Part shown: piece after piece, positions 5,654-63,829 of the stretch
How the letters are laid out: each line of letters starts with the position of its first letter
Position numbering within the stretch: the first letter of the stretch is position 1
NCBI RefSeq assembly: GCF_030684315.1
Contig: NC_081387.1
Coordinates: 16,895,409 to 16,959,408, forward strand
Reading direction: 5' to 3'
Origin: Stegostoma tigrinum
Lineage: Eukaryota
Length of the DNA: 64,000 nucleotides
The notes under the pieces: generated by a model
What the model was told of the DNA's origin: nothing
What the model saw: the letters and a program-made list of their open reading frames with translations, nothing else
The model's database searches: none
Made by a program: the position numbers and the translations under genes

Positions 5654-5923
5654 AACCGCTGTCGAAACCGTTGATCTTCAGTAATTCCTCCTTTGTGGAT
5701 ACAACCATTGAACTGACTTGTCAAGTGCTTCGGGGGAATGCAACTTCCATTCTGTGGTGGAAAGATGGCACTTTGTTACCCGATAATCAGCACTTCCTGT
5801 TACTGCAAAACAACAGCAGATTGATTATTTCTGCAGCCAAAAAATCCGACTGTGGCATCTACACTTGCGCTGTGGAAAACCCTGTCAGCAAGAAGAATAA
5901 TACATATTTGCTTCCTGTTTACG
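5654..5923 (+). CDS. Gene A exon: IgC2 domain
   Basis: cccacag|AA ... G|GTGAGT; 270 nt, phase 1/1. EPLSKPLI..LTC..WWKDG..DCGIYTCAVENPVS..LPVY is the typical C2 signature of the CD2/SLAM/CEACAM families. Confidence 0.93.
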
Positions 5924-8668: not shown

Positions 8669-8785
8669 GTCTTTCACAGTGGCATTACTGCACCTTGGGA
8701 TTGTCCATCGCTACGCTGATTAATCTTGCTGTTGTTTCTTTAATCCACAAGATTACTTTGTGTGTACAGCAAGCCAAAATACCAT
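8669..8785 (+). CDS. Gene A exon: TM1
   Basis: tttcag|GT ... T|GTAAGA; 117 nt, phase 1/1. GLSQWHYCTLGLSIATLINLAVVSLIHKITLCVQQAKIP, homologous to gene B exon 48188-48295 (LSQ..CTLGLSI). Confidence 0.82.
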
Positions 8786-8893: not shown

Positions 8894-9040
8894 ATGAGAG
8901 AGGCGAACGTAATGATGGGAAAACAGGCACAAATGTAGGGTTGAAGTTACCTGAATGCGTAGAAAAATTCTTGCAGCTCCTCCTGAAGCTTTCATTTCTC
9001 CTTCTTTTGGCTGCATTTGTGTTTTGGATGTATATCGAAG
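8894..9040 (+). CDS. Gene A exon: cytoplasmic loop plus TM2
   Basis: cgacag|AT ... G|GTAATG; 147 nt, phase 1/1, open. YERGERNDGKTGTNVGLKLPECVEKFLQLLLKLSFLLLLAAFVFWMYIE; the C-terminal half matches gene B exon 48488-48571. Confidence 0.78.
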
Positions 9041-10495: not shown

Positions 10496-10897
10496 ACATT
10501 CTGTATGATCTGAAATCAGGAATGGCTTGCAATACAGCTCATTTCTCAATATTGTCCAGTCATCTGATCAGTGAAGGTCGTATTTTATTGTCCATTGACT
10601 GACTCCCAAATGAAGCTACAAAAACCATCATGAATCGTGATATAAAACACAAATATTGGAGAAACTCAGCAACTGTGGAAAATAAAACAGTTAATGTTTC
10701 AAGTCTAGTATGACTTCAAAATTTTTACTGATAAATAGTAACATTGCATTGGTTTTGTTACGGTATTGTAACTACAGAAATGATAGTCATGTGTATGCTA
10801 CATATTATTCTCGTTTCGAATGGCACTTTGAACTTCATAACTTTGTTTTTCTTGAATAGGTGAATGTATAATTTTATTTACTCTGTTCTTTTCATAG

Positions 10898-10993
10898 GAT
10901 TTGCTGTAATCACTGTGATCACAGTGGTGTTTCTGACTCTGTTTCTAATTCCAACTGCAATATGGAGCAGAAATAACCAGAACAACTCAGCAG
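10898..10993 (+). CDS. Gene A exon: TM3, 5' part (runs into a Penelope insertion)
   Basis: ttcatag|GA; GFAVITVITVVFLTLFLIPTAIW aligns with gene B EVATIIVIVLVVLCLLLIPTVLL. The 3' boundary is an inferred cryptic donor CAG|GTCTGT inside the repeat. Confidence 0.65.
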
Positions 10994-11493
10994 GTCTGTC
11001 AAGAGAAATCAGAGTTAACATTTTGGGATCCAATGGCCCTTCTTCAAAATTGATGGTAGCTGGGAAAACATATTCTTTTTTATCCCCTTGTGCAGAAGAT
11101 AGCGTCGGGGGAGGGGGGTAAGGGGTAAATAATAGGTGAGGGATAGAGCCCAAAGAACGAGAGACACGCCCAAAGGATGGGTAATGGTCAGCCTAGGGTA
11201 ATGCATGGCTGTTAATGGGGACGACAGGGGCTCACTATTGGCTGTGTGCAACAGCAGATCATGTGAATGCAAGGCCTAGTGTGTGAGGATTGGGTAAGGA
11301 TATGAGAGAAGTTGTCTTATGCCCTAAAATTTTTGAACTCGATATTGAGTCCAGAAGGCTGTAGAGTTCCCAAGCAGAAAATCAGATACCATTCTTCTGT
11401 CTTGCACTGAGTTTCATTGGAGTGCTGCAGCTAGACAGATGTTGGCCAGGGAGCAAGGTGGTTTGTTGAAGTGGCAGGCAACAGGAAGTTCAG
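10965..11493 (-). mobile_element. Penelope 3' fragment inserted within the gene A TM3 exon
   Basis: Minus strand reads ELPVACHFNKPPCSLANI..YLIFCLGTLQPSGLNIEFKNF. Terminal repeat ctcagcaggtctg..agagttaacatttt at the left end. Confidence 0.8.
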
Positions 11494-11535
11494 ATTGTTG
11501 GCTTTTTAAGAAGGCTTGCACCCTGAACTGGATGG
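11494..11535 (+). CDS. Gene A: remainder of the TM3 exon after the insertion
   Basis: Begins where the PLE remnant ends (ttcag|AT). Reads DCWLFKKACTLNWM and ends at a strong phase-1 donor G|GTAAGA; 42 nt. The acceptor has a poor pyrimidine tract. Confidence 0.5.
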
Positions 11536-11840
11536 GTAAGATTTCCAAGTCTAAATGTACATTCAGACATGTTACGACCATGCAATCAAAACCCTCATGT
11601 TAAGTTTGTGGAAGTGGTTGAGCAGCAGTGTATAAAGGAAGGAGAGGAGGGAGTTGAAAAATTTTGTGAGTTATCATCGTCAATGATGCCTTTCAAATTT
11701 GGTCTTGTTCTGCTAAAACCCGGGATGTGGTAGAAGTCCACACGTGTACTTCAGAGACAAGAAAATATCTCTAAAGTGCCGCATTGTCCCCAGGTTTCTT
11801 TGGCAGACCCTTATTCTTAAAAATAAACTCAGATATTCCA

Positions 11841-12259
11841 CAACCAGCCCAGCTCTTCCCCCCCCACCCATTGCATCCCAAAACCAGTCCAACCTGTCTC
11901 TGCCTCCCTAACCGGTTCTTCCTCTCACCCATCCCTTCCTCCCACCCCAAGCCGCACCCCCCGCTACCTACTAACCTCATCCCACCTCCTTGACCTGTCC
12001 GTCTTCCCTGGACTGACCTATCCCCTCCCTACCTCCCCACCTACACTCTCTCCACCTATCTTCTTTACTCTCCATCTTCGGTCCGCCTCCCCCTCTCTCC
12101 CTATTTATTCCAGTTCCCTCCCCCCATCCCCCTCTCTGATGAAGGGTCTAGGCCCGAAACGTCAGCTTTTGTGCTCCTGAGATGCTGCTTGGCCTGCTGT
12201 GTTCGTCCAGCCTCACATTTTATTATCTTGGAATCTCCAGCATCTGCAGTTCCCATCAT
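11841..12259 (+). mobile_element. Young Neptune-type PLE terminal repeat with 13-bp TSD
   Basis: Near-identical to copies at 31468-31945 and 62990-63406. ctcagatattcca at 11828-11840 and 12260-12272. Confidence 0.9.
12136..12163 (+). ncRNA. Minimal type-I hammerhead ribozyme motif (PLE)
   Basis: CTGATGA-A-GGG-tctagg-CCC-GAAAC-GTC. Also at 14588-14615, 31816-31843, 63321-63348 (+) and 30540-30567, 62562-62589 (-). Helix I is only about 2 bp. Confidence 0.7.
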
Positions 12260-12954
12260 CTCAGATATTCCAGGACAGCTCCTGTAGCTCATTTCATCCT
12301 GGCTTTTTCTTTTGGTTATTTTATGCTGGAGATCCGAAACACCGGTTCGATGCCTCCTCCTATATTGAAATTGATCCAACAATGATTGTAAACATTTTTA
12401 AGAGTCACTGTAAGTGGAAAGGACCAATACAACTACAGCTACATGGCATCAAACATAGATTGGATACAAGACTAGATGCCCAGAAATTGTATATAATGCA
12501 ACCAATGTAATAGAGAGGAAAACACATGGACAGTTAAGTTTGACTTTAGATTGACTTCAAGAAGACTATTTGATTCAGGGACATAATTACTTTTTTTTAA
12601 ACTATCCAAGTGACTGAGCAAAAGTTGGGTTTACAGATCTGGCTTTTAAACAGCAAAAAATTGTTTCATTATTGTAATTGGAGTGAATTTTTGTGTACTA
12701 GAGCTTAATTTGTGAAAGCTGGAAGTGTATTAATGATGATGGAATGGAATGGTATGGAAGACAGATTGAAAATTCAGCGCATGTGCAGACAAACTTGCGT
12801 TTTCACAGCCTCGGGCAGTTGCTGTCCAATAAATTACCTTAATACCCATTACAAGAAACACAGGCACTAAACAGAGCACAGCAAGATCCCACGTATGTAT
12901 CCAGGAGATACCTGACAAAGTAATTCTCTTTGACGTTGTAGGATACAGTGTAAC

Positions 12955-13205
12955 TGATGGACAAAAACAGGAGTTGCTGGAAAAGTTCAGCGGGTCTGCC
13001 AGCATCTGTGAAAGAAAAAAAATCAGACTTAACGTTTCAGGTCCGTGTACACTTCCTCAAAACTTATGAGGAAGGGTCACCGGACCTGAAACGTCAACTC
13101 TCTATTTTTTCCTGTCACGCACACTGCCAGACCTGCTGAGCTTTTCCAGCAACTTCTGTTTTTTTGTTCCTGATCCACAGCATCCACAGTTCTTTCAGTT
13201 TTTAT
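12955..13205. mobile_element. Head-to-head inverted PLE terminal repeats (second family)
   Basis: gttgctggaaaagttcagcgggtctg.. / ..cagacctgctgagcttttccagcaac, with centre cttcctcaaaacttatgaggaag. Confidence 0.75.
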
Positions 13206-13641: not shown

Positions 13642-13737
13642 TTTTCAGCCTTTTTCTGAGTGCATTCGATCTATACGGTGACGTACTCATTGTGTGTCTG
13701 CCGGGAATCCTGATAAAAGAAACACTCGTACGTTCTG
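13642..13737 (+). CDS. Gene A exon: TM4
   Basis: ttttgcctccag|TT ... G|GTGAGT; 96 nt, phase 1/1. VFSLFLSAFDLYGDVLIVCLPGILIKETLVRS, homologous to gene B GEIAVICLSASLI. Confidence 0.78.
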
Positions 13738-14484
13738 GTGAGTCTTGATGGTGGAATTTATAGCCAACAAATCAATTCTGAGCATGACATCCTGTCAGAA
13801 ATAGTATGACCAGAAGGCTTGCACCCCGAACTGTCACGTCTTTAATCAAAACCATCAATTTATTGAAGCTTAACAGCGTAAAATCAGGCCACTCAGCCCA
13901 TTGTGTTTCTGTGCCATCTCCTTACTGTATCAGTTCTACAGCATAAGAAATAGGAGCGGGAGTAGGCCATTCAGCCCCTCAACCCTACTTTCCAATTCAA
14001 TACGATCGTGACTGATTTCATTTCAACTCCTCCACTCTGCTCCCCGTGACCCCTCAACCCATAATAATTAAAAATTGCCTGTCTCTTCAACTTACTCAGT
14101 GTCCCAATATCCAACAGTCTCTGTGGTAGTGAGTTCCAGAGATTCACAACCCTTTTTTTTGAGTGAAGTAATTCCCCCTCTTCTCTTTTAAATCTGCCAC
14201 CCCTTTATCCTAAAACTACGACCTCTCATTCTACATTTGCCCCACAAGTGGAGACATCAGCTTCACATAGAGTTGTCAACCCTCTACATCTTATGTACCT
14301 CACAATTATTTCTCCTCTCATTCTTCCATACTCCTGGCAGGCGTAAGCCTAAACTGCTCAATCTCTCTTCAAAAGCCAAGCCTTATATCTTTGGAATTAA
14401 TCTAGTGAACTCTTCTGAACTGCTTCCAATGCAATTACATCCCTCTTCATGTAAAAGAACCAAAACTGTACTCAATTCCAGGTG

Positions 14485-15864: not shown

Positions 15865-15965
15865 GCAAAGGATGTGAGCCAGCGCCCAGTCTGCAAACTA
15901 GTCTAATTCTTGCTCTGGTGGTGCCATTCATTTTCCTTTTGATATCCCTTTGCCTGGTATATTGT
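15865..15965 (+). CDS. Gene A exon: extracellular KGCEP loop plus TM5
   Basis: tttcag|GC; KGCEPAPSLQTSLILALVVPFIFLLISLCLVYC, a clear paralog of 52053-52154. Donor is TGT|GTAAGT (phase 0) or the alternative A|GTAAGG at 15969 (phase 1). Confidence 0.85.
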
Positions 15966-24515: not shown

Positions 24516-24550
24516 AAGGAAAATCGCAGTTGAACTCTAGAATCAATTAG
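24516..24550 (+). CDS. Gene A candidate terminal coding exon
   Basis: Long pyrimidine tract ending ttaacag|AA. EGKSQLNSRIN-stop, phase-compatible with the two preceding mini-exons. Confidence 0.42.
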
Positions 24551-24729
24551 GGAAAGGCTTCTTCATAATGAAAAGGAGCCAGAATGGAGTTACACTACTA
24601 TCACTGGACCCAGGCTGCTACCATTTGTGAAAGCACTTTCAGTTGAGTTTGAGCATGTGGGGAAATGGCACTTTCACTTGTGAGGCTGAGTTTTCTGAGA
24701 TAACTGTGGAACCTCAGCAGTATATGACT

Positions 24730-29756: not shown

Positions 29757-30471
29757 TCAGACAAACATGTTGGCCTATAACTTGGTGTGGTGTGATTCCT
29801 GACCTTGCTTTCCCCCCCGCCAGAGGAGCCAGTGCCTGAGCTGGGAGGTGTGCAATGTACACATTTGTTTTTCTGGGCACAGTGTGCGGTGATGGCATCG
29901 CCTGAATCTATCACTGTGAGAGCAGCAAACCATTCTCCAGGGACCCCGATATCCACAGGTGGCTGGGGGCAACAGCTCCGCAAAATTCTCAAACTGTGCC
30001 CTCCTGGGGGCAAGCCTCATACCCCTGGAACCCACCCCACCCCATCCCATCCCCAGTTTGAAACTGGCGCCAGCCTGCAGCATATGTCACTTCCCCTCCA
30101 GGCCAGTGCGAAAGGCAGATGTGAACGGTGATTAGGAAGTCAGACTGCAGCCTTTGTGCTTCCCTCAGTGACCACCCGAAGGTTGCAGGAACAGCAACTC
30201 AATTCCGCTTGGGAACCCTGCAGCCCAATGGTATAATGTGGATTTCACAAGCTTCAAAATCTCCACTCCCCCCACTGCATCCCAAAACCAGCCTAGCCTG
30301 TCCCTGCCTCCCTAGCCTGTTCTTCCTCCCTCCCATCCCCTCCTCCCACCCCCATCTCCCACCTACTAACCTCATCCCGCCCCCTTGAACAGTCCGTCCT
30401 GCCGGGACTGACCTATCCCCTCCCTACACTCTCCTCTCCACCTATCTTCTCTATCCATCTTCTCTCGGCCT

Positions 30472-31945
30472 CCAAGATAATAAATTGTGAGGCTGGATGA
30501 ACACAGCAGACCAAGCAGCATCTCAGGAGCACAAAAGCTGACGTTTCGGGCCTGGACCCTTCATCAGAGAGGGGGATGGGGAGAGGGAACTGGAATAAAT
30601 AGGGAGAGAGGGGGAGGCGGACCGAAGATGGAGAGTAAAGAAGATAGGTGCAGAGAGTATAGGTGGGGAGGTAGGGAGGGGATAGGCCAGTCCAGGGAAG
30701 ACGGACAGGTCAAGGAGGTGGGATGAGGTTAGTAGGTAGATGGGGGTGCGGCTTGGGGTGGGAGGAAGGGATGGGTGAGAGGAAGAACCGGTTATGGAGG
30801 CAGAGACAGGTTGGACTGGTATTGGGATGCAGTGGGTGGGGGGGAAGAGCTGGGCTGGTTGTGTGGTGCAGTGGGGGGAGGGGACGAACTGGGCTGGTTT
30901 GGGGATGCAGTAGGGGAAGGGGAGATTTTGAAACTGGTGAAGTCCACATTGATACCATTAGGCTGTAGGGTTCCCAGGCGGAATATGAGTTGCTGTTCCT
31001 GCAACCTTCGGGTGGCATCATTGTGGCACTGCAGGAGGCCCATGATGGACATGTCATCAAGAGAATGGGAGGGGGAGTGGAAATGGTTTGCGACTGGGAG
31101 GTGCAGTTGTTTGTTGCGAACTGAGCGGAGGTGTTCTGCAAAGTGGTCTCCAAGCCTCCACTTGGTTTCCCTAATGTAGAGGAAACCACACCGGGTACAG
31201 TGGATGCAGTATACCACATTGGCAGATGTGCAGGTGAACCTCTGCTTAATGTGGAATGTCATCTTGGGGCCTGGGATAGGGGTGAGGGAGGAGGTGTGGG
31301 GGCAAGTGTAGCATTTCCTGCGGTTGCAGGGGAAGGTGCTGGGTGTGGTGGGGTTGGAGGGCAGTGTGGAGCGAACAAGGGAGTCACGGAGAGAGTGGTC
31401 TCTCCGGAAAGCAGACAGGGGTGGGGATGGAAAAATGTCTTGGGTGGTGGGGTCGGATTGTAAATGGCCCCTACTGCATCCCTAAACCAGCCCAGTTCGT
31501 CCCCTCCCCCCACTGCACCACACAACCAGCCCAGCTCTTACCCCCACCCACTGCAACCCAAAACCAGTCCAACCTGTCTCTGCCTCCCTAACCGGTTCTT
31601 CCTCTCACCCATCCCTTCCTCCCACCCAAAGCCGCACCCCCATCTACCTACTAACCTCATCCCACCTCCTTGACATGTCCGTCTTCCCTGGACTGACCGA
31701 TCCCCTCCCTACCTCCCCACCTATACTGTCTCCACCTATCTTCTTTACTCTCCATCTTCGGTCTGCCTCCCCCCCTCTCCCTATTTATTCTAGTTCCCTC
31801 TCCCCATCCCCCTCTCTGATGAAGGGTCTAGGCCCGAAACGTCAGCTTTTGTGCTCCTGAGATGCTGCTTGGCCTGCTGTGTTCATCCAGCCTCACGTTT
31901 TATTATCTTGGAATTCTCCAGCATCTGCAGTTCCCATTATCTCTG
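30472..31945 (-). mobile_element. Neptune-type Penelope element: 5'-truncated GIY-YIG end plus inverted terminal repeat, nested in an older PLE copy (30170-32090)
   Basis: Minus strand reads AFRRDHSLRDSLVRS..FPCNRRKCYTCPH (Cys linker), then NVVYCIHCTRCGFLYIRETKWRL..EH..HF..RLQEQQLIFRLGTLQPNGIN. The segment 31468-31915 is the reverse complement of 30472-30925. Confidence 0.92.
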
Positions 31946-32734
31946 ATTCTCTCCGCCTCCTCTCGCTATTTATTTCAGAACCCCGTTCCTCTACCCCATT
32001 TCAAGAAGTGTCTCGGCCCGAAAGGCCAGCTTTGCTGCTCCTCTGCCTGCTGTGTTCATCTAGCTCCACGCTTTGTTCTCTCGGATTGGAGAGACACTGG
32101 GCTTCCCTAACACAAACAGCTGTATGTTCCGGCGGACGATCGGGCGAGTTTGTGAACCGTTCGCCCGCGGCCTGAAGGGCTTCGATCGGGTTAAAGGGGC
32201 GAATTAAAACTCTTCTGTCTCAAAGAAGCCGAGAAACTTCAGCAAGTCCAGCATACTTTCTGAAGGAGTGTCTCGGCCCGAATCGTCAGCCTTCCTGTTC
32301 CTCTGATGCTGCTTGGCCTGCTGTGTTCATCCAGCTCTGCATCTTGTTACCTCAGATTCTCCAGCATCGAGAGAGAGAGAGGTAAAGTTTCGGGTCCGGC
32401 GTAACTCAGATGGTTATGACTCCAGGGTGGAAAAGTGATATCCTTTGGGTTCATTTAATCAGTGCAGAAAAATAGGCGCTGGCTGAAGTCAGGTTTGTAA
32501 TGCGGCGGAAAATGATCGCTATTACATGATAAAACACGCAGTAACTATATGTAATACTTATATAAACAATTACACCGTAAGGACCGGTGTTGTGTAAGCA
32601 GAATTGTGTCATCAGTAATTCCAACACAGTTTTGAACTGAATGAGGGGGGAAAAAAATCCCTGGTTACTTTTAGAATCTGATTCCACTTTTAGGATTGCT
32701 AAGAGGGGCCAGGAGATGTCAGAAGCGTATTTTT

Positions 32735-43186: not shown

Positions 43187-43513
43187 GCAATGTCAAAATG
43201 GAATCTTACCGTGCTCCCGGAAGCTCTATGTTCTTCCCTGGAGTTGATGAGTATGAACGGAGCACAACAAAATTTTACCAATGGAAAGTGTCCAATGGGG
43301 GTACAAAGAATGGGCTCAGTGCGGGAGTGCTACTGTTTCACGTTGGGGCTGCAGAACCTTCAGTATTAAATAAGTACACACGTCGCCTTGAATTCTTCCC
43401 AACCAATGGATCGTTCATCCTTCATCATTTAACTTCTTCAGATGAGGGTCTTTATACACTTCCCATCAATCTACGTGATATCATCATTCAAAATGTTCAG
43501 CTATGGATAGTAG
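43187..43513 (+). CDS. Gene B exon: Cys-free IgV-like domain
   Basis: ctcatag|GC ... G|GTATGC; 327 nt, phase 1/1. ..YQWKV..YTRRLEFFPTNGSFILHHLTSSDEGLYTL..VQLWIV. Confidence 0.9.
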
Positions 43514-43584
43514 GTATGCTTGTTTCATGAATTTAAGCGGCAATGATCTGTGCTATGGGAAAATACATCAGATGTACCTACGTA

Positions 43585-44590
43585 ACCTGTCCCTTATTCT
43601 GAGACTGCATCCCCTGGTTGCAAACCTCAGACAGGAAACATCTTTCCTGCCTCCACTATAAGATGCCACTATATTGCCTTTAAGAATTTTAAGTTTCATT
43701 GTGATCGCCTCTCATTATTCTAAACTCCAGGGAAGTAAGGCCAGTCTCTTCCGTCTCTCCTCATAGACAATCCAGGTAGTCATTAAAAGAACCTTCACTG
43801 CCCAGGGCTGCAAAGGAAAGTACATCCTTCCTTAGTTATGTGGGGTCAGAACTGTGTACAACCCAGGCATGGTCTCACGAGGCACTATACAATTTTAGTT
43901 TACTCCTGTACACACAGCCTGTTGTGATGAAGGGCAACAATTCATTCACTTTCCTATACACTTGCTACAGCTTCATGTTAGCTTTCAGTGACTTGCTGGC
44001 AAGGATACCTGGTCTATTGAACATTAACACCGCTAAATGGCTCACTGTCTAGAAAATACTCTACACCTCTGTTCTTCCCACCAGTGGATGCACTCGAACG
44101 TATCCACTGCTTCATGCGGTCGGTTTAATGACTACGACATCACTGTAGCAAGTCAGAGTAAACATCAACAAAAACATTTGCCCATTTACTCAGCCTGTCC
44201 AACTCTCCTGAAATCTCTTTGTTTCCTCCTCACAACCCCTGTTTCCATCTGGTTTTATGTCATAAACTCTCTGCTAACTTTTTATGATTCACATACAGGG
44301 ACATGCAGATCTCTCAGTACTGCAGCTTTCTGCAGTCTTTCTCCATTTAAACAATTTCTGCTCTTCGTCTTCAATTCTTCCTGCCGAGGCGTACAGTCAT
44401 GTAATTGCCAATTTTTTTTGACAACTGACAACCTGTCTGTATCCATTTGCGGACTTTTTCTACCCTTTGCATTGTCAGCAAATTTGGCTGCAATACAGTT
44501 CACCCTTTCATCGAAGTCATTAATCCAGCTGGCGAGTAGTTGAGGCCCCAGAACTGAACACTGAGACAATCCACTCATTAGTTTGTCAAC
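43585..44590 (-). mobile_element. Degraded CR1 fragments
   Basis: SGLSQCSVLGPQL..INDFDERVNCIAAKFADNAK (RT core remnant). Confidence 0.75.
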
Positions 44591-45952
44591 CCTGAAACGC
44601 AAGCCACAGGAGGGGCATGGGTGGAGTGTGAAACTTATGTCAGACATCCTGCCAGCCCACCTACCTGCCCCTGCAGGTACTTTGGTGTTCAGGTACTTGC
44701 AGACTAATTTAGTTCTTAACTAACCAGTTAATGAGCTGTTCAGTGAACCTTTCACCAGCTTTCAATTCAGTGGATGATAAGGAGTATGGGAATGATACAT
44801 TTGCCCCCTGATCCTCCAATGGACAGGCAGATCTCTCTTGCACTTTCTTCCACCTCCATACTTGATGATTGTAGTAAAATTCCACCGTCCACTCTTGCAG
44901 GATACAAACCTGGGTTCCTAGAACATTACCGTGGTATCTGGATGGCTAGTCGCAATACCACTGGGCCACTACCTCCCCATTTTAATAAGTCACCCTGCTA
45001 TTGCTATCAATAAATGGATTCTGTTAATGTTAAAGGTGAAGAAGGAAGCTCACCATCACCTTCTCAAGGGCAACTAGGGACAGATAAATGTTGGCCCAGT
45101 CAGCGACATACACATTTGGCGAATGAAGAGAAAAAGCACTTTGGTTCTAGTAACTGCAGTGTGCATAAGGATAGTGCACTATCATCCTTTAGCTATGAGA
45201 GACAGTACATTTTGTGTGCCAGTCTGGAACTTTTGACAACACTAAATGAGACAACAGAAACCAACTTGTTAATTAATTTGGTCCTTCAAAACAGATTGGG
45301 TTAATGCTCTTGTTAAATTGACAAGTAAAAGCATTACTGGAAAACTAGATTAATCCAAAATAAAATGGAAAGTGCTGGACTGCTCACAAGGTCTGGCAGC
45401 ATCTGTGAAGACAGAAAAGTCTGATTTCAAGTAAAATCGGACTCTTGCAAGACTTAATGTAGCGACCCAGCTGCACATTGCTGAAGGAGTGCTGTATTAT
45501 CGAAGCAGTCTTTTTTTTTTGATGACACTCTTTAGAGCATGGCCCCAACTGCCAACTTCACTGGTTTGGGAGGAAACTAAGAATCTCCACTTTTGAGAGG
45601 AAACCATTAGGAAGAAATGTCCTGACTTGAAACGTCAACTTTCCTGCTGCTCTGATGCTGCCTGGCCCGCTGTGTTCCTCCAGCTCCACACTCTTGTCCC
45701 CAACTCCAGCAGTTCTTACAATCTCTGCTGTCCTGATGAATATTATTCTAAGTGCTGTAAAACTGCATCATCAGACCATTCGTTGCGTTTCTGACTTCGA
45801 TAAAATGACAGACAAATTCACCACTGTGTTCTTTACACAACTGTCCCTTAAAATAAATACATCTCCTTTCTTTTGAACACACATTTTGCGAGCATTGTGA
45901 AGGATGGGGTTAGGGTTAGTGCAATTATTTATTCAGTATTTCTCTCTTTCAG

Positions 45953-46213
45953 ATAAGCTGTCAAATTTTCTGATATTAAGCAGATGCAGCTTCCCCCAGC
46001 CTGCCATCATGCTGACCTGTAATGTTTCTGGACATCCTCATGAGTATCAATGGCTGAAAGATGGAGGGAACATCTCTCGCCGTCACCGACTAGTAGATGG
46101 AAACAGAAGCCTCATCATTCTGAATGATGGGAAAGATGACCGTGGCATGTATACTTGCATTGCAATCAATCCTGTCAGCTCTGTCCAAGCTCATTATCTG
46201 TTAACTATTAATG
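45953..46213 (+). CDS. Gene B exon: IgC2 domain
   Basis: tctctctttcag|AT ... G|GTAAGC; 261 nt. LTCNVSG..YQWLKDG..GNRSLII..DRGMYTCIAINPVS..LLTIN. Confidence 0.93.
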
Positions 46214-47109
46214 GTAAGCTGTGTTTTGCACATAATTTCAAGAATAGGAGCATGGTTAGGAGAAATTCCTTCACTCGGTGTTGTTGAGCCATTTTATCAC
46301 AAGGAATGTTTGAGACAGATCATGCTTGAATGGAGAGACAACTGGTTTTACAATGTTACAATTTCCAAGTGTTCCGTGCAATGTATATTGATTGCCCCAA
46401 ATCATGTTTTGCTACGGTTACTTGTTAGTACAGATTGTGCTCGTTATGGGGAAAAAAAATGCATGTTGCCAAAGTTTTTCAGCTTGCACTCATCAGGAGA
46501 AATGGAAGAATACCAAATAATATTTATTATGTGAGCAACAGGGTGCTGACCAGTTGGCAATTGTGTTCTGATGGCCAAGTCTTTAGGCATCAAGAATGGG
46601 CAAGAAACACTTTACCGAAGCTTTAAATTTAAATTTAATCAGGGTGAGTCAACTTAAATTCACCAATGTGTTTAGTAAATGTGTCTTCCAAGCTTTAGCT
46701 TAAATTAAAGGGTGTAGGGCCTGGACGAAGTGCCTTTTAGCTGCAGGGGACTCAGCCCTTCATGTGAATGTAAGGAGCCTCTCGTATGTATAAGTGAGTC
46801 ACTTTGCAAACTGATGATCTTCGGTTGGTTATTGAGTGATTCTTGGCAGCCTCTGAACATTTTACTAAGTGCTGCCCAAGTGTGGAGTCAGATCAAATTG
46901 GGAAACTATGTTCTACAATTTCTAAGTTTGGGCTTATTGAGCACTACCAGTACTCTGCCTGCCATGGACATTTGAAGGGTTGGCTGTTTAAAGTGGTTCT
47001 GATGTTTAGCCTACACACTTGGTGTCATGCCAGCACTGAACTTCATGGAATACGTTACTGAATCTGCATGGTTAGCAGAAGGTCTTTTTCAGGTTTGATC
47101 GCAGCATCC

Positions 47110-47505
47110 TATAAATTGAAGGTATTGGCTATGAGGAAAGATTGGACAAACTTGGTTTGTTTTTACTTGAATGTCGGAGGCTGATGGGTGACCTGATTAG
47201 AAGTTTACAAAACTACAAAAGGGATGGATAGAATGGATAGTTGGAGTCTTTTTCCCAGGGTAGCAATGTCAAATAATCTGTGGCATAGGCTTAAGGTAAA
47301 AGCGAGAAAGTTTAAAGGTACTGTAACAGGCAAGTATTTTACATAGAGGTTGGTAAGTGCCTGGAATGTACTGCTAGAGGAGTAGTAGAAGCAGATTCAA
47401 TAGGAGCATTTAACAGGCATCTGCATTGATGTATGAATGGGCAGGGAATCGAGGGATACAAAACACAGAAGCCAAAGGGCGTTCTTCAGTTTAGAAAGGT
47501 GTCTT
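47110..47505 (+). mobile_element. CR1 3' fragment
   Basis: YEERLDKLGLF..RRLMGDLI..YFYIEVGKCLE-type decayed C-terminus. Confidence 0.7.
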
Positions 47506-48187
47506 GTGTCGGGGCCGGGGGGGGGAAGAAGAAAACGGTTCATGTTCTCTGACTATTTCTGAGTCAAGCCATCAGTCAACTCCACTGCACTCAAATAAAA
47601 GAGTGGCAGTTGTTGGAGATCTGAAACGATGGACTCGCAACATTAACTCCATTTTCTCTCCAAAGATGCCACCCGACCTGCTGAGTTTCTCCAGCAATTT
47701 CTGTTTTTGTTTCACTTGCCCTCAGCCCTGACCGAAGACATTAATCTGAAAACTTAACGTTGCACATTTTCATGGTAGCAGAAGAGCATTGGGCGGCCAG
47801 CACAAACTGATATCGTACATGAGGAAATTGGACAGTCACAACATTTACCAGGAAAATCTCAGCGAAGTTCAGTGTCTTTCAGACAGACAACAAACTGTAG
47901 GAAACAGAGCACTGGTTATGTATGATATGCTTCTCGTCTTGCAGTTGAAACACATTGTTGATGCATAGCTGAGAATGTGTCACACTGCCTGTAAGTGTAT
48001 TGTAGCTCATCTTGAAAGAGTTAGTGTGGGGAGAGGGTGACAACCAAATATTGCATTGGATGCTAAGTGCAAAATGTCCTATTTCAAGCACTCCAGACTG
48101 TCTTGTGAACTGCATTTTTAAGGAAAAGCAGACACTTTGTGGAAGCTTTGAAAACGTGATAAGTTTAACGTAAGTTCTCTGTTTCAG

Positions 48188-48295
48188 ATTTGTCACAAAT
48201 TCGTGACTGCACACTGGGATTGTCCATATCTTCGCTGGTCACTGCTGCTTCTGCCTTTATCTGCACAATAATTTCATGCTACAAGGCTGAAAGAT
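48188..48295 (+). CDS. Gene B exon: TM1
   Basis: ctgtttcag|AT ... T|GTAAGA; 108 nt. DLSQIRDCTLGLSISSLVTAASAFICTIISCYKAER. Confidence 0.85.
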
Positions 48296-48487
48296 GTAAG
48301 AGCAAACTATTTCTAGAGTTTGGTGTCAAAAATTTAAAAATATCATACGTTAACAATGGAAGCAATGTTAAACAAGTAAGTATTGCCCTTGTTATTTTAA
48401 ATTCAGTTCCATTGTATGGAGTGACTGATTTGAATGTGCATATTATTTTCTTAAGTAATATTGATTTGAATGTACTTATTACTCTAG

Positions 48488-48571
48488 ATCTCCAGTTTCT
48501 TAAATATGGATTAGAAATCTTGGCATTGGTCCTTCTTACTGCAGTGCTTGTGTATTGGATTGTAATTGGAG
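48488..48571 (+). CDS. Gene B exon: TM2
   Basis: ttactctag|AT ... G|GTACTG; 84 nt, phase 1/1. YLQFLKYGLEILALVLLTAVLVYWIVIG. Confidence 0.78.
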
Positions 48572-48977
48572 GTACTGTACTCCTGTTTCTTTGCCCTTAC
48601 ACTGTATTGTAGAAATACAATTATCTGCCAAATTAAATTCAAGTTTAAAATTTGAGGACAGGCATTTTTTCAAAATCGTCTGTTTTATAATAAAAGCCCA
48701 ATTTGTTCACCTGATTTTGGAAGTGTCCAATTGATCCTTCAGCATGCTTTCAAAGACCTTTTAAAGTCAGCTGTAATTAAGTTCCTGATGCAATAATCCC
48801 ATCCTGAAAGCCCAAATATTAAGCCTCCTGCATTCCCCTCAATGTGATCGTAAAAGCCCCGTTCAGTATATATTGGGCATTCTTTTATATACTGAGATGG
48901 TGAATTAACCAGTGAAGGTATTTGCTCTTTATTCCATGAATGTGTGTAATTGTATTTGGTTTTTGTCTATTCAATAG

Positions 48978-49097
48978 AAGTTGCAACAATCATAGTGATT
49001 GTGTTGGTGGTCCTGTGTCTGCTGCTAATCCCAACTGTGTTATTGACATTGATGGCTTGTGATGTGATAAGTTCCACGGAGACCTCGAAGATCAAAA
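48978..49097 (+). CDS. Gene B exon: TM3 plus cytoplasmic loop
   Basis: ttcaatag|AA ... A|GTAAGT; 120 nt. EVATIIVIVLVVLCLLLIPTVLLTLMACDVISSTETSKIK. Confidence 0.85.
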
Positions 49098-49831
49098 GTA
49101 AGTTCACCTGTACTTTATGGACTTACATTGTGCTGCCAAAAGGCTCATGATCAGATACAGGGATGGTGAGAATGTGCTTCTCCTTGGGGTGCATATTGAG
49201 CGAGTGATCGGGAAATTTGTTTGAGGGAGTGATTTGAAATTTAGATTTGTCGCATTTCTGGTGAATTTTAAGAATTGGTCGGAGGAAATTGCAGCAGGTT
49301 GGTTAGTATCCAACTATAGTGGATCCAGTTGTAGATCCCAAGGAGATACACCGTCCTTGCTGTCAGTGAATCTGTTGAAGGATGGAGCAGGCTCAAGGGG
49401 CTGAATGGCCTACTCCTATTTCTCATGGTCTGGTATAACTCTTCCTCTGGTCTGAGGAAGTGATACCCAACTCAAAATGTTGTCTCTGGTTCTCTCTCCA
49501 CAGGTGCTGCCAGACCAGCATTTTTTTTGTGATTGTTTTGGATTTCTACCTTTTTATAGGAAGATGCAAACAGCCTCCACTTTTTAATCTGTTAATTTTT
49601 AAGTGGATAAAGTATTCAGCAGATTGTAAAGATGTGTGCTTTTCCCTTCCCAACCTGTGTTTTCATTTGATCCAATAATCCCGAGCACAGGATTAGGAAA
49701 AGTTGCTCTGTACTTCTCTTTTTGACCAGTTGCGCTCGCCAGATGCGCGGCAAGAGACAAACAGATCAGCATTCGAGTTCATCTGTGACAGCTAAGTATG
49801 TAATCAGCAATTCCGATCTATTTATTGCCAG

Positions 49832-49930
49832 CTTACGTTTTGATGGTCGTGGGTGTGCTATCTACGTCGGGTGAAATTGCTGTGATATGTCTGTCTGCAT
49901 CCTTGATTGCAGGGATAACCTATCCAGGTG
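49832..49930 (+). CDS. Gene B exon: TM4
   Basis: ttattgccag|CT ... G|GTGAGT; 99 nt. TYVLMVVGVLSTSGEIAVICLSASLIAGITYPG. Not in the ORF track; found by homology to gene A. Confidence 0.8.
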
Positions 49931-50756
49931 GTGAGTTGGAAATGCGTAAAATGGATAGCTAACACATCTGTTCTGAACGTAACATCCCGTCAGCAATTAT
50001 GTGATTCGGCGACGTAATTGCTGAGTTGTTTCAGCCCGTTCCCAATGAATACTGTTCATAGCCTCCTTTTACACTGGAAAGATGAGACAATGAGGTCCAC
50101 TGTGTATGCACTACCTCTTTACTCGACCATTACAAATTTAGCCACACTGTTCTGCAGTCTCCTCCTAGCCCTGTATTACTTCCCAATATTTATCCAGTTT
50201 TCTCCTCTTAAATCCAACGGTTCCCATTGCAACTACTCTCTATATAGTGAAATGTTCTGTATGTGAACAGATATCTCTTCCAAACTAAATCTTAATGAAC
50301 TCAGTTGTATAATTAAGCTCTAAAACTGTCGAATCTAAGAGCTACATAAAAATACACAGCAGAGAAAAAGACCACTTGGCCTAACCAGTCTCCATCAACA
50401 TTAATGATCTACTCAAACATTCTCTTCTTCCTTTCCTGCTTAACTCCTCAAACATAACCTAACATTTTCATTTCTCTTTTTCAAATGCTACCTCGTTAAA
50501 ATTGAATTGTACTAATTCTTTCCTGCAAGTATATGACAAGATAGCATGTTCTACATTCTCTCCTCTTGTTGGAAATGATGTCTTATGAATTCCTTTGTCA
50601 AATTTTGATAATGCTTTAAAAGCCATTGAGTCTATTGTCAGTGTTTTCATTTCAAGAGAGGCAGGGACTACAATTCTGGAGTCTCTAAACTAAATTCAGA
50701 GGAGACCCAGGACTTCTCATTTCAACTCCTGCAGCCTCTTGTGTGGATCAATTAGT

Positions 50757-51815
50757 GTAACCAGGAAAATTAGGATCAGCAGTGTAGAATACTTTTAAGT
50801 ATGAAGGTCCTTTTCGAGAGCTGGTGTTTTAACCAGGAGGAAAGCACAATGCTCTGTTGATTCTGGGCCACTCTGGTTAGTTCCATGGGGGAGCAAGTTG
50901 GCATTTCAGCCTTCCTAGTTCATGTTGGAAAGGGAATCGAATGGAGAAAACTATTTTTATCCAAAAGTGAAAACAACTGAATATTTGTTATTTATTTCTA
51001 TACAATCAGTGATCCAAGTGAATTTGTTTCCAACAGAATTAATTATTTTCTGTTTTAGCATCAGGTTTGTTACAAAGTTGGGTAGAGTATTCATGAACTG
51101 GAAAGCAGGAAGTTGGAATGATTGGTTTAAAAGTATTGTAGTGTTGGTAAAGAGTGCCTGGTTCCTTTAACAAAAAAAATCACGCTTTGTCTACACTTGG
51201 AAGTTGCACACACTATACAGAAAACCTTAAGTGAAAATTACATTAAAAAAGCAGTCTTGTTGTCAAAACATGTTTTGAATTTGGCCAGTTAATTTAAAAC
51301 AAGCATTCAGTGATTCAAAGCCAATTGAACTTAATAACTGGCGGTGGTGACAACATTGACCCAATTCGACTGAAGAAATACTGTTGTCATCACGGGTATA
51401 CAGATGAGGGCATTTGGAAAATCGAACAAGAGCCACCTGCGGTCTGCAGCAAAAGCAAGTCAGCTATCTGAGACATAAACCTGGTTTTCACAAATAATTT
51501 TAAACTCCTCTTTAAAAAGCCACTTCAAAGGTCCCAATGAATTTTGGGACTTTTGTTTATTTGAACAGTATTCAAGTAGAATTTAGACCAGTTGGGAGTT
51601 GTTAGTAGTCTGGGGGGGAAATTGTCAGCTTATTAGTAATTGTGTTAATTTGTTCATTGTTAGGGTTAAATAAATAAATTGTTTCTTCTTACTTGTAAAG
51701 TGGAGATCAGGGATTTTCTTTCTTTTAATCGATTCCGATGGGCAAGGTAGCTTCTCTGGGGTTTTTTTTTGGAAGGTAATTATTAGAAGGGAACCTGTAC
51801 TCCGATCATAATAGA
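50757..51815 (+). mobile_element. Possible solo LTR
   Basis: Starts tgtaacc, ends ..gatcataata, with an internal aataaa near 51670. No second copy or TSD verified. Confidence 0.25.
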
Positions 51816-52052
51816 TTGCTGCTTGTGTTTTGATTTAGTTATTAGAGGGGTTCAGCCATTTCCCCATTGTAACAGGTTAATGATGCATGTTGTATGTGCT
51901 TTGGGCAATGAATGCTGTTCCTGTAAAGGATGATGATTTCAGCATTTCCATTCAAATGTTTCAAATGATTTGTGTTCTGTATAAAGCCAAACAAAATATC
52001 TTGCATCAAATTCTAACCATCTTTTCTGTTTTTTTGCAATCATATATTGCAG

Positions 52053-52154
52053 ACAAAGGATGTGAACCAGCAGCCAACCTACAATCAAACTTGACTGTTG
52101 CTTCTTGTGTGTCAATTGCTTTCCTATTGGCACTTCTTATCTTTCACGCTATAC
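52053..52154 (+). CDS. Gene B exon: KGCEP loop plus TM5
   Basis: attgcag|AC ... C|GTAAGT; 102 nt. DKGCEPAANLQSNLTVASCVSIAFLLALLIFHAI. Confidence 0.87.
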
Positions 52155-62462: not shown

Positions 62463-63406
62463 GAGATAATGGGAACTGCAGATGCTGGAGAATCCGAGAT
62501 AATAAAATGTGAGGCTGGATGAACACAGCAGGCCAAGCAGCATCTCAGGAGCACAAAAGCTGACGTTTCGGGCCTAGACCCTTCATCAGAGAGGGGGATG
62601 GGGAGAGGGAACTGGAATAAATAGGGAGAGAGGGAGAGGTGGACCGAAGATGGAGAGTAAAGAACATAGGTGGAGAGAGTATAGGTGCGGAGGTAGGGAG
62701 GGGATAGGTCAGTCCAGGGAAGACGGACAGGTCAAGGAGGTGGGATGAGGTTAGTAGGTAGATGGGGGTGCGGCTTGGGGTGGGAGGAAGGGATGGGTGA
62801 GAGGAAGAACCGGTTAGGGAGGCAGAGACAGGTTGGACTGGTTTTGGGATGCAGTGGGTGGGGGGGAAGAGCTGGGCTGGTTGTGTGGTGCAGTGGGGGG
62901 AGGGGACGAACTGGGCTGGTTTAGGGATGCAGTAGGGGAAGGGGAGATTTTGAAACTAGTGAAGTCCACATTGATACCATATGGCTGCAAACCAGCCCAG
63001 TTCGTCCCCTCCCCCCACTGCACCACACAACCGCCCAGCTCTTCCCCCCCACCCACTGCATCCCAAAACCAGTCCAACCTGTCTCTGCCTCCCTAACCGG
63101 TTCTTCCTCTCACCCATCCCTTCCTCCCACCCCAAGCCGCACCCCCATCTACCTACTAACCTCATCCCACCTCCTTGACCTGTCCGTCTTCCCTGGACTG
63201 ACCTATCCCCTCCCTACCTCCCCACCTACACTCTCTCCACCTATCTTCTTTACTCTCCATCTTCGGTCCGCCTCCCCCTCTCTCCCTATTTATTCCAGTT
63301 CCCTCCCCCCATCCCCCTCTCTGATGAAGGGTCTAGGCCCGAAACGTCAGCTTTTGTGCTCCTGAGATGCTGCTTGGCCTGCTGTGTTCATCCAGCCTCA
63401 CATTTT
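62463..63406. mobile_element. Young head-to-head inverted Neptune-type PLE with 13-bp TSD
   Basis: Arms about 62499-62918 and 62990-63409 are near-perfect reverse complements. attttctctgtta at 62450-62462 and 63407-63419. Confidence 0.93.
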
Positions 63407-63829
63407 ATTTTCTCTGTTATCCTGTGTTTCCTTAAACTCCTGTCTTTTCATTTCAAACTGCATCTTCGCTTTCCCAGCTGTGACATCCCAATTTTAGTTT
63501 ACCTTTCTTCCAGTTCTAAGTAGAAACACAAAATATGCGCAGGAATAGGCCTGTTGAGTCTGCTTTGCAATTCACTATGATCGTGGCTGATCAATCTCTC
63601 CAAACCAATTGATCCCTTTACCCCAAAGAAATGTACCTAACTTCTCCTTGAAAGGATTTATGTTTTCACCTCAGCCATTTTCTGATGTAGAGAATTCCAC
63701 AGGCTCACCACTCCCTTCAGTGAAGAGGTCTTTCCTCATCTCAGTCTTATGTGGCCTACCCTGAATCCATAGACTGTGACTTCTGGTTCTGGACCCTATA
63801 TAGTCCTAATGGAATTTTATAAGTAACCA

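Follow-up and report, generated by a model that had tools for sequence, protein, structure and literature searches.

A cluster of five-helix immunoglobulin genes

We analysed a 64,000-nt stretch of the zebra shark (Stegostoma tigrinum) genome (the window; contig NC_081387.1, positions 16,895,409-16,959,408). On its forward strand, the first gene (gene A) comprises an IgV exon (690-995) and an IgC2-type exon (5654-5923), both recognised in a domain search, and the membrane exons TM1 (8669-8785), TM2 (8894-9040), TM3 (10898-10993, as spliced in the gene models), TM4 (13642-13737) and TM5 (15865-15965). The V exon is 100% identical to RefSeq XP_059495595.1 (P0001), and the seven exons, joined via 10993>13642, yield a stretch that is present letter for letter in this protein. 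Gene B, which lies from 43 kb on, is a paralogue of gene A, as are two or more genes situated upstream. The cluster holds at least four V-C2 five-helix Ig genes (690-24570 and 43188-52154 of the window, and 16.50-16.95 Mb of the same contig), and each membrane helix is encoded by its own phase-1 exon. In some members an extra TM4-like exon precedes TM3.

We found 69 relatives of gene A, in sharks, rays, one bird species (sage grouse) and, weakly, a marsupial; 47 of them were aligned. The shark, ray and sage-grouse relatives are unnamed in RefSeq, and the family, with its ectodomain of V and C2-type Ig domains and its five helices, is uncharacterised in the records examined. An AlphaFold2 model of the whale-shark orthologue, made from a 45-row alignment, shows five long helices (pLDDT 83, pTM 0.70); an earlier fold from a 3-row alignment (pLDDT 38) was discarded. 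In fold searches, the ectodomain matched CEACAM1/6, CD58, CD48 and NTB-A best. The helical part gave neither a Pfam family above the cut-off nor a usable Atlas match, and V-set_CD47 was matched in a single homologue, below the cut-off.

A Penelope-type fragment within the TM3 exon

The TM3 exon starts at 10898, behind tcatag, and reads GFAVITVITVVFLTLFLIPTAIW. Its 5' part (10898-10965) encodes the third membrane helix (GFAV...PTAIW), aligns with the TM3 exons of the paralogues and shares 9/23 residues with the basking-shark homologue P0010. At 10966 a different sequence begins. A sequence-only reading of this DNA had seen about 530 bp of an antisense Penelope-like element inside the exon, and our searches bear this out: a 5'-truncated Penelope-type fragment of 528 bp (10966-11493, minus strand), comprising the 3' end of the element and the tail of its GIY-YIG coding region, lies antisense to the gene. 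With 10800-11700 as the query of a genome search, repeat matches were confined to about 10966-11494. The inserted region (to 11493 or 11494) has at least 43 matches in the genome (40 of the 6,914 candidates were scored), the best of which are 70-74% identical. With thousands of candidates, the element family is very abundant.

The insert matches the end of an open reading frame elsewhere in the window (30792-31481, minus strand), which represents the GIY-YIG end of a longer copy (blastx E 1e-8). This ORF scores 0.95 against Atlas clusters that carry PF01541 on 12-15% of their members; a Pfam search of the element ORF gave no match, and the support for GIY-YIG is thus at the feature level. The ORF also contains a CX2-5CxxC motif, CNRRKCYTC, outside the 528-bp insert. 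Other copies continue with shared sequence where the window departs from them at 11493, and this position is therefore the 5' truncation point of the insert. At 10966-11493 we saw neither a tandem or inverted partner nor a 30-40 bp tail. Of the 482 intronic columns scored, 80 (16.6%) set the insert apart from the majority sequence of 11 further copies; those 11 themselves depart from the majority by 10.5-16.5%, which argues that the insert is old. Both junctions are bridged by contigs without a mismatch in 4/4 DNA runs, which represent at most two samples of one study and possibly the assembly's own source, and no joint that skips the whole element is among the DNA-run joints listed.

Young Penelope-type copies, 95-99% alike and with inverted pairs, are found at 11839-12266, 30471-31948 and 62463-63414, one young copy lying 280 nt behind the remnant described below. 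In the intron of this remnant, two Penelope ends are inverted head-to-head at 12941-13185, with 122-nt arms that are 75% complementary and 1 nt apart.

The stranded half of the exon

Formerly coding sequence follows the element. The segment 11494-11556 on the forward strand, WLFKKACTLNWMGKISKSK, is the stranded 3' half of the ancestral TM3 exon, as indicated by its alignment to homologues and its single-copy depth. Its 63 nt end in ...KKACTLNWMGKISKSK, and its peptide, which ends in ...KISKSK, is identical to basking shark P0010 at 7/18 residues, gapless. Taken together, the two halves in the window align without a gap to the basking- and white-shark exon ...LLMFTKACAIKWLNKILETE; the remnant therefore extends to 11556. 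The sequence-only reading had instead ended it at a strong donor at 11535/6 and counted 42 nt. This has to be corrected, since the 63-nt form matches the exon end of the basking and white sharks, and the GTAAG in question lies 21 nt inside the old coding sequence: GTAAGA (11536-11541) is a cryptic phase-1 donor within codons G-K, aligned with the coding AGCAAG of the paralogous exon in P0174. The ancestral donor is the decayed GTACATTCA at 11557-11565. At this exon/intron edge gene A reads AAT|GTACATTCA and three paralogues have GTAAGTTCA, GTAAGTTCA and GTAAGTTGA, that is, GTACAT in gene A versus GTAAGT in the paralogues. The decayed donor scores 5/9 against the U1-pairing consensus, a value shared by 2/12 real donors. 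Behind 11556, the intron sequence is alignable with the paralogue introns.

The sequence-only reading took the interruption to be new, and the homologues agree that no intron stood here before. Those without the element have one continuous TM3 exon of 38-43 residues in 33/44 rows, the other 11 rows being alternative, partial or long ray models. The exon is continuous at the insertion position in gene B, P0174, P0176 and other sharks; that of gene B (48978-49097) has 40 codons and the donor GTAAGT. In the element-free homologues it ends in a basic KAC...KIL.(T/S)K-like stretch. The ancestral form of the exon is read from the paralogues, because the tree resolves no orthologue outside the carpet sharks. 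The remnant start carries 5 or 8 extra junction bases, and two reconstructions fit: an exon of 41 codons plus 8 extra bases, without a frameshift, or one of 42 codons plus 5. As both fit, we claim neither a frameshift in the remnant nor a defined target-site duplication.

The element might alternatively have landed at or just behind the end of the exon, the supposed remnant being a chance look-alike or a scrap moved there from elsewhere. Some local copying did involve this sequence. Remnant bases 11509-11530 have a 22-nt copy with one mismatch at 13812-13833 in the assembly, and these two sites are the only matches in the 3.2-Gb genome at up to one mismatch. In addition, the first remnant bases GGCTTTTT also resemble the continuation of the element, and the blastx match extends weakly to 11509. 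For a split exon, the best local match of the remnant peptide falls in register at the TM3 exon end in 12/28 homologues; against it, all shuffles are beaten in only 2/28. Against the basking and white sharks, the peptide beats 200/200 shuffles (score 48; shuffle maxima 34 and 42). The gapless match of the basking-shark exon across both halves, the homologous donor and intron behind the remnant, and a read depth over the remnant that is single-copy and not repeat-like make a look-alike or a scrap scarcely credible. We conclude that a Penelope-type insertion splits the TM3 coding exon of a V-C2 five-helix Ig gene. As a separate observation, the 22-nt twin sits 75 nt into the next intron, at the point where similarity to the paralogue introns ends.

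Probable splicing from the element to TM4

We then investigated how the split exon is spliced. The two splice sites that the sequence-only reading had noticed, CAG|GTCTGT at 10993/4 and ttcag| at 11493, are both present, as is the stop of the read-through frame at 11121 (TAA, 11119-11121), which would end translation if the donor were unused. The first 28 nt of the element (10966-10993) are exonised in P0001: they encode SRNNQNNSA plus one base and end at the phase-1 donor CAG|GTCTGT, in agreement with the element profile given below. The element-derived residues are thus the nine of SRNNQNNSA. The count of about nine made from the sequence stands, and the final D of the SRNNQNNSAD then written out exists only in a 10993>11494 isoform. 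The donor agrees with the U1-pairing consensus at 7/9 positions, equal to the highest value among 12 real donors (5-7), and there is no better GT in 10898-11130.

All five models that cover the junction (Stegostoma tigrinum P0001, Rhincodon typus P0002 and Chiloscyllium punctatum P0003, P0005 and P0006) read ...SA|V(F/W)S, straight into TM4; the sixth member of the cluster, P0004, is partial and ends before the junction. Skipping of the remnant from donor 10993 (10993>13642), one of the options in the sequence-only reading, is therefore the form that RefSeq models of three species show, and the remnant is present in 0/5. The frame is kept into TM4, a 96-nt exon with a good acceptor, phase 1 to phase 1. 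In the models, the TM3 exon has shrunk from about 41 codons to 32, nine of them derived from the element. The junction is given by RefSeq gene models. Several RefSeq isoforms, as in the three bamboo-shark models, would imply transcript support. The zebra-shark model consists of one isoform with a first exon that is in doubt, and its junction may for this reason be predicted rather than observed. The zebra- and whale-shark RefSeq clusters have one member each.

The element-bearing exons have 1-3 basic residues near their end, compared with 2-7 in typical homologues. In the whale-shark AlphaFold2 model, the element-derived residues lie at the end of helix 3 and in the turn into helix 4 (pLDDT about 71-76). 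Helix 3 appears to be spared, the loop to helix 4 having been swapped and shortened, and the predicted topology would place this loop in the cytoplasm.

The sequence-only reading had favoured another outcome, in which the element is rescued as a new in-frame intron. Here the element would be removed as a 500-nt intron (10993>11494), with the remnant kept as an exon of 42 nt (to 11535) or 63 nt, in the main or a sizeable second isoform. Splicing between these sites does keep the frame (DCWLFKKACTLNWM), both remnant forms are in frame and stop-free, and the good donor GTAAG (6/9), of the same phase, lies 21 nt before the decayed one. The remnant is also as similar to basking shark (7/18) as are the used half (9/23) and the TM4 exon (10/32), that is, as conserved as exons in use. 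This similarity fits slow neutral decay, but it fits continued use too. Within the element, an AG at 11349 (exon start 11350) has a pyrimidine fraction of 0.62, no competing AG and an open frame, and would add about 62 residues. The candidate acceptor itself, ttcag (11489-11493) at the truncation point, is purine-rich and weak: its pyrimidine fraction is 0.25 with four competing AGs, whereas 13/13 real acceptors of genes A and B have 0.56-0.88 and 0-1, by a crude measure of pyrimidines and competing AGs that stands in for a trained splice model. The two best pyrimidine tracts in the element (11096 and 11412) lead to frameshifts. An open frame follows 7 of the 51 AGs in the region, so the one at 11494 is not special, and an open frame of 14 or 21 codons survives 12.5-16.6% random substitution in 60-75% of simulations. 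With no recorded protein carrying the remnant (0/5 models, the single-member zebra- and whale-shark clusters included), we regard this outcome as very unlikely. The same low probability attaches to a variant in which 10993>11494 removes the element from part of the messages and the new GTAAG at 11535 replaces the dead donor; the resulting 42-nt mini-exon could be switched against the skipped form, toggling a basic cysteine-bearing loop for more than 66 My. If this were true, a retroelement-born intron would flank a mini-exon inside the vertebrate coding sequence of a shark immune-type receptor.

The reading we prefer, and hold with good confidence, is that the element inserted in the middle of the TM3 exon and that the gene splices from the CAG|GT of the element to TM4. 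Nine element residues would stand in place of some 18 residues of the host, and zebra, whale and bamboo sharks would have inherited this form from a shared ancestor. The element end would already have carried a phase-1 donor behind an open frame, and as its phase equals that of the old donor, the first spliced message would have been in frame. With the helix-coding part upstream of the insertion, nothing but the basic loop that joins helices 3 and 4 would have been exchanged and shortened. The remnant, having no usable acceptor, would have dropped out of the message, after which its donor could decay, and the element-derived residues would from then on have evolved as part of the protein (SRNNQNNSA, SRNNRNGSA and TRICWKDSA). 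The earlier observation is in this way partly confirmed and its interpretation partly supported; to it we add where the remnant really ends and how old the event probably is.

Age of the insertion and evolution of the element-derived peptide

The peptides at the exon end are SRNNQNNSA in zebra shark, SRNNRNGSA in whale shark and TRICWKDSA in bamboo shark, and the antisense end of the element, in the frame set by CAG|GT, has the majority NRSCWKSSA. From 20 other copies of the element, with the anchor placed on the intron side, we took the nine codons that precede AG|GTC and built a profile. Among the 21,462 nine-mers of 47 proteins, the highest score (22.2 bits; the next reaches 10.3) goes to the bamboo peptide, precisely where the exon ends. 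For zebra and whale shark the peptide scores are 7.9 and 7.0 bits, values reached by 7 and 8 nine-mers. The zebra (NNS) and whale (NGS) peptides contain an N-x-S motif that occurs in neither the bamboo peptide nor the element majority; it probably goes unused if this loop faces the cytoplasm. An acceleration of change in the 28 exonised nt was considered and rejected (7/28 columns versus 80/482 in the intron; Fisher p = 0.30).

In a quick tree of 36 of the 47 rows, from which 11 near-duplicate isoforms or long ray proteins were left out, the three orthologues group together in a single clade (SH-aLRT 100), and the same 32-codon exon is common to the zebra-, whale- and bamboo-shark protein models. 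One insertion before the species split is therefore the simplest reading. The presence of the element in whale and bamboo shark would follow from the peptides, as the comparison there is one of protein sequences. No shorter or partial orthologue models were found among 126 candidates. Among the 69 relatives there is no gene A orthologue from Hemiscyllium or C. plagiosum, which does not by itself show absence. The Cretaceous-Paleogene boundary lies at 66 My, and Chiloscyllium is a genus that we take to belong to the Hemiscylliidae. According to a study of these sharks (PMC8529718), the splits between carpet-shark families precede that boundary, except for that of whale and zebra shark. The insertion thus likely predates the split of these carpet-shark families, which would make it more than 66 My old.

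The rescue might persist in whale and bamboo shark while the zebra-shark gene has lost its leader and makes no working protein. A whale- or bamboo-shark leader peptide has no match in the 31 kb upstream, which is free of N, and RefSeq starts the zebra-shark protein with an unrelated first exon. In the last exon (24516-24570), a TAG replaces an E that whale shark encodes six residues ahead of its stop. Zebra shark also has 19 private changes to 9 in whale shark over 373 columns, but this difference in rate is not significant (p = 0.087). Moreover, seven consecutive exons with GT-AG ends keep an open frame of 377 codons, and a leader may exist at a greater distance or in a part that the assembly lacks; a genome-wide search missed the leader, but it missed a known part of the V exon too. 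We consider a non-working zebra-shark gene unlikely. The evidence for the rescue is strongest when it is read as an event in an ancestor, and in zebra shark the gene may be in decay. TM5 can end at either of two donors, which lie 4 nt apart and give different tails.

Comparison with known systems

To our knowledge, a gene does not normally survive an insertion into one of its internal coding exons, and such insertions are seen mostly as disease alleles. Here the gene seems to have survived an old insertion that is now fixed, and the traces can all still be read: the inserted element, the donor it brought, the fossil half-exon with its dead donor and, next door, paralogues without the insertion. 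We judge this a sound case of an exon rescued long ago through the donor of a retroelement. It provides a dated natural test of how element-derived residues evolve within a protein, and among carpet sharks the insertion marks a clade. At the antisense end of the element, a CAG|GT preceded by an open frame is common (24/40 and 32/40 copies, which are upper estimates since the search motif contained the site). Given this frequency and the abundance of the family, the same rescue could have occurred in other shark genes. Our literature searches brought up no report of Penelope elements exonised in sharks and none that deals with this receptor family; supplementary repeat and gene tables for sharks could bear on novelty.

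The host family resembles CD2/SLAM and CEACAM in its V-C2 ectodomain but differs from them in its anchor, which has five helices and not one helix or GPI. CD47 has five membrane helices. Gene A is likewise predicted to have five, with two Ig domains compared with one in CD47. CD47 is absent among the fold-search matches listed, which are filled by Ig domains and barely cover the helical part.

The inserted element resembles the Penelope-like elements of the Neptune/Nematis type, which have a C-terminal GIY-YIG and, upstream of it, CX2-5CxxC, as described in PMC8557442: the copy is 5'-truncated, the family ORF is GIY-YIG-like with CX2-5CxxC, and inverted pairs occur in the window. Unlike the elements presented there, it is a 528-bp stump about 17% from the family majority, and the 30-40 bp tail is not seen.

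In its splicing, the case is like the transposon exonisations that supply a 5' splice site (Sela et al. 2007, PMC2394776; PMC13709765; PMC2879366), in that an antisense retroelement gives a donor and joins the message in frame. In these sources, cassette exons that stem from elements in introns make up 94% (human) of exonisations (PMC2394776), and alternative donors elongate an exon beside the old site (PMC2394776; PMC13709765). Unlike in these classes, the element of gene A interrupts an internal coding exon, whose downstream half has been given up and whose length has decreased, and the new form appears to be the only one recorded in three species. An exon-inserted element with a splice site is also found in the intronisation of Alu elements (CWF19L1, C14orf111 and PDZD; PMC2394776) and in introners (PMC11282704). 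As described there, these remove the element and keep both exon halves, and the Alu insertions concerned are in last exons and 3' UTRs (PMC2394776), in contrast to the internal coding exon of gene A. Here only the donor seems to be used; therefore, no new intron would have arisen, and the 5' end of the old intron would have moved 563 nt upstream.
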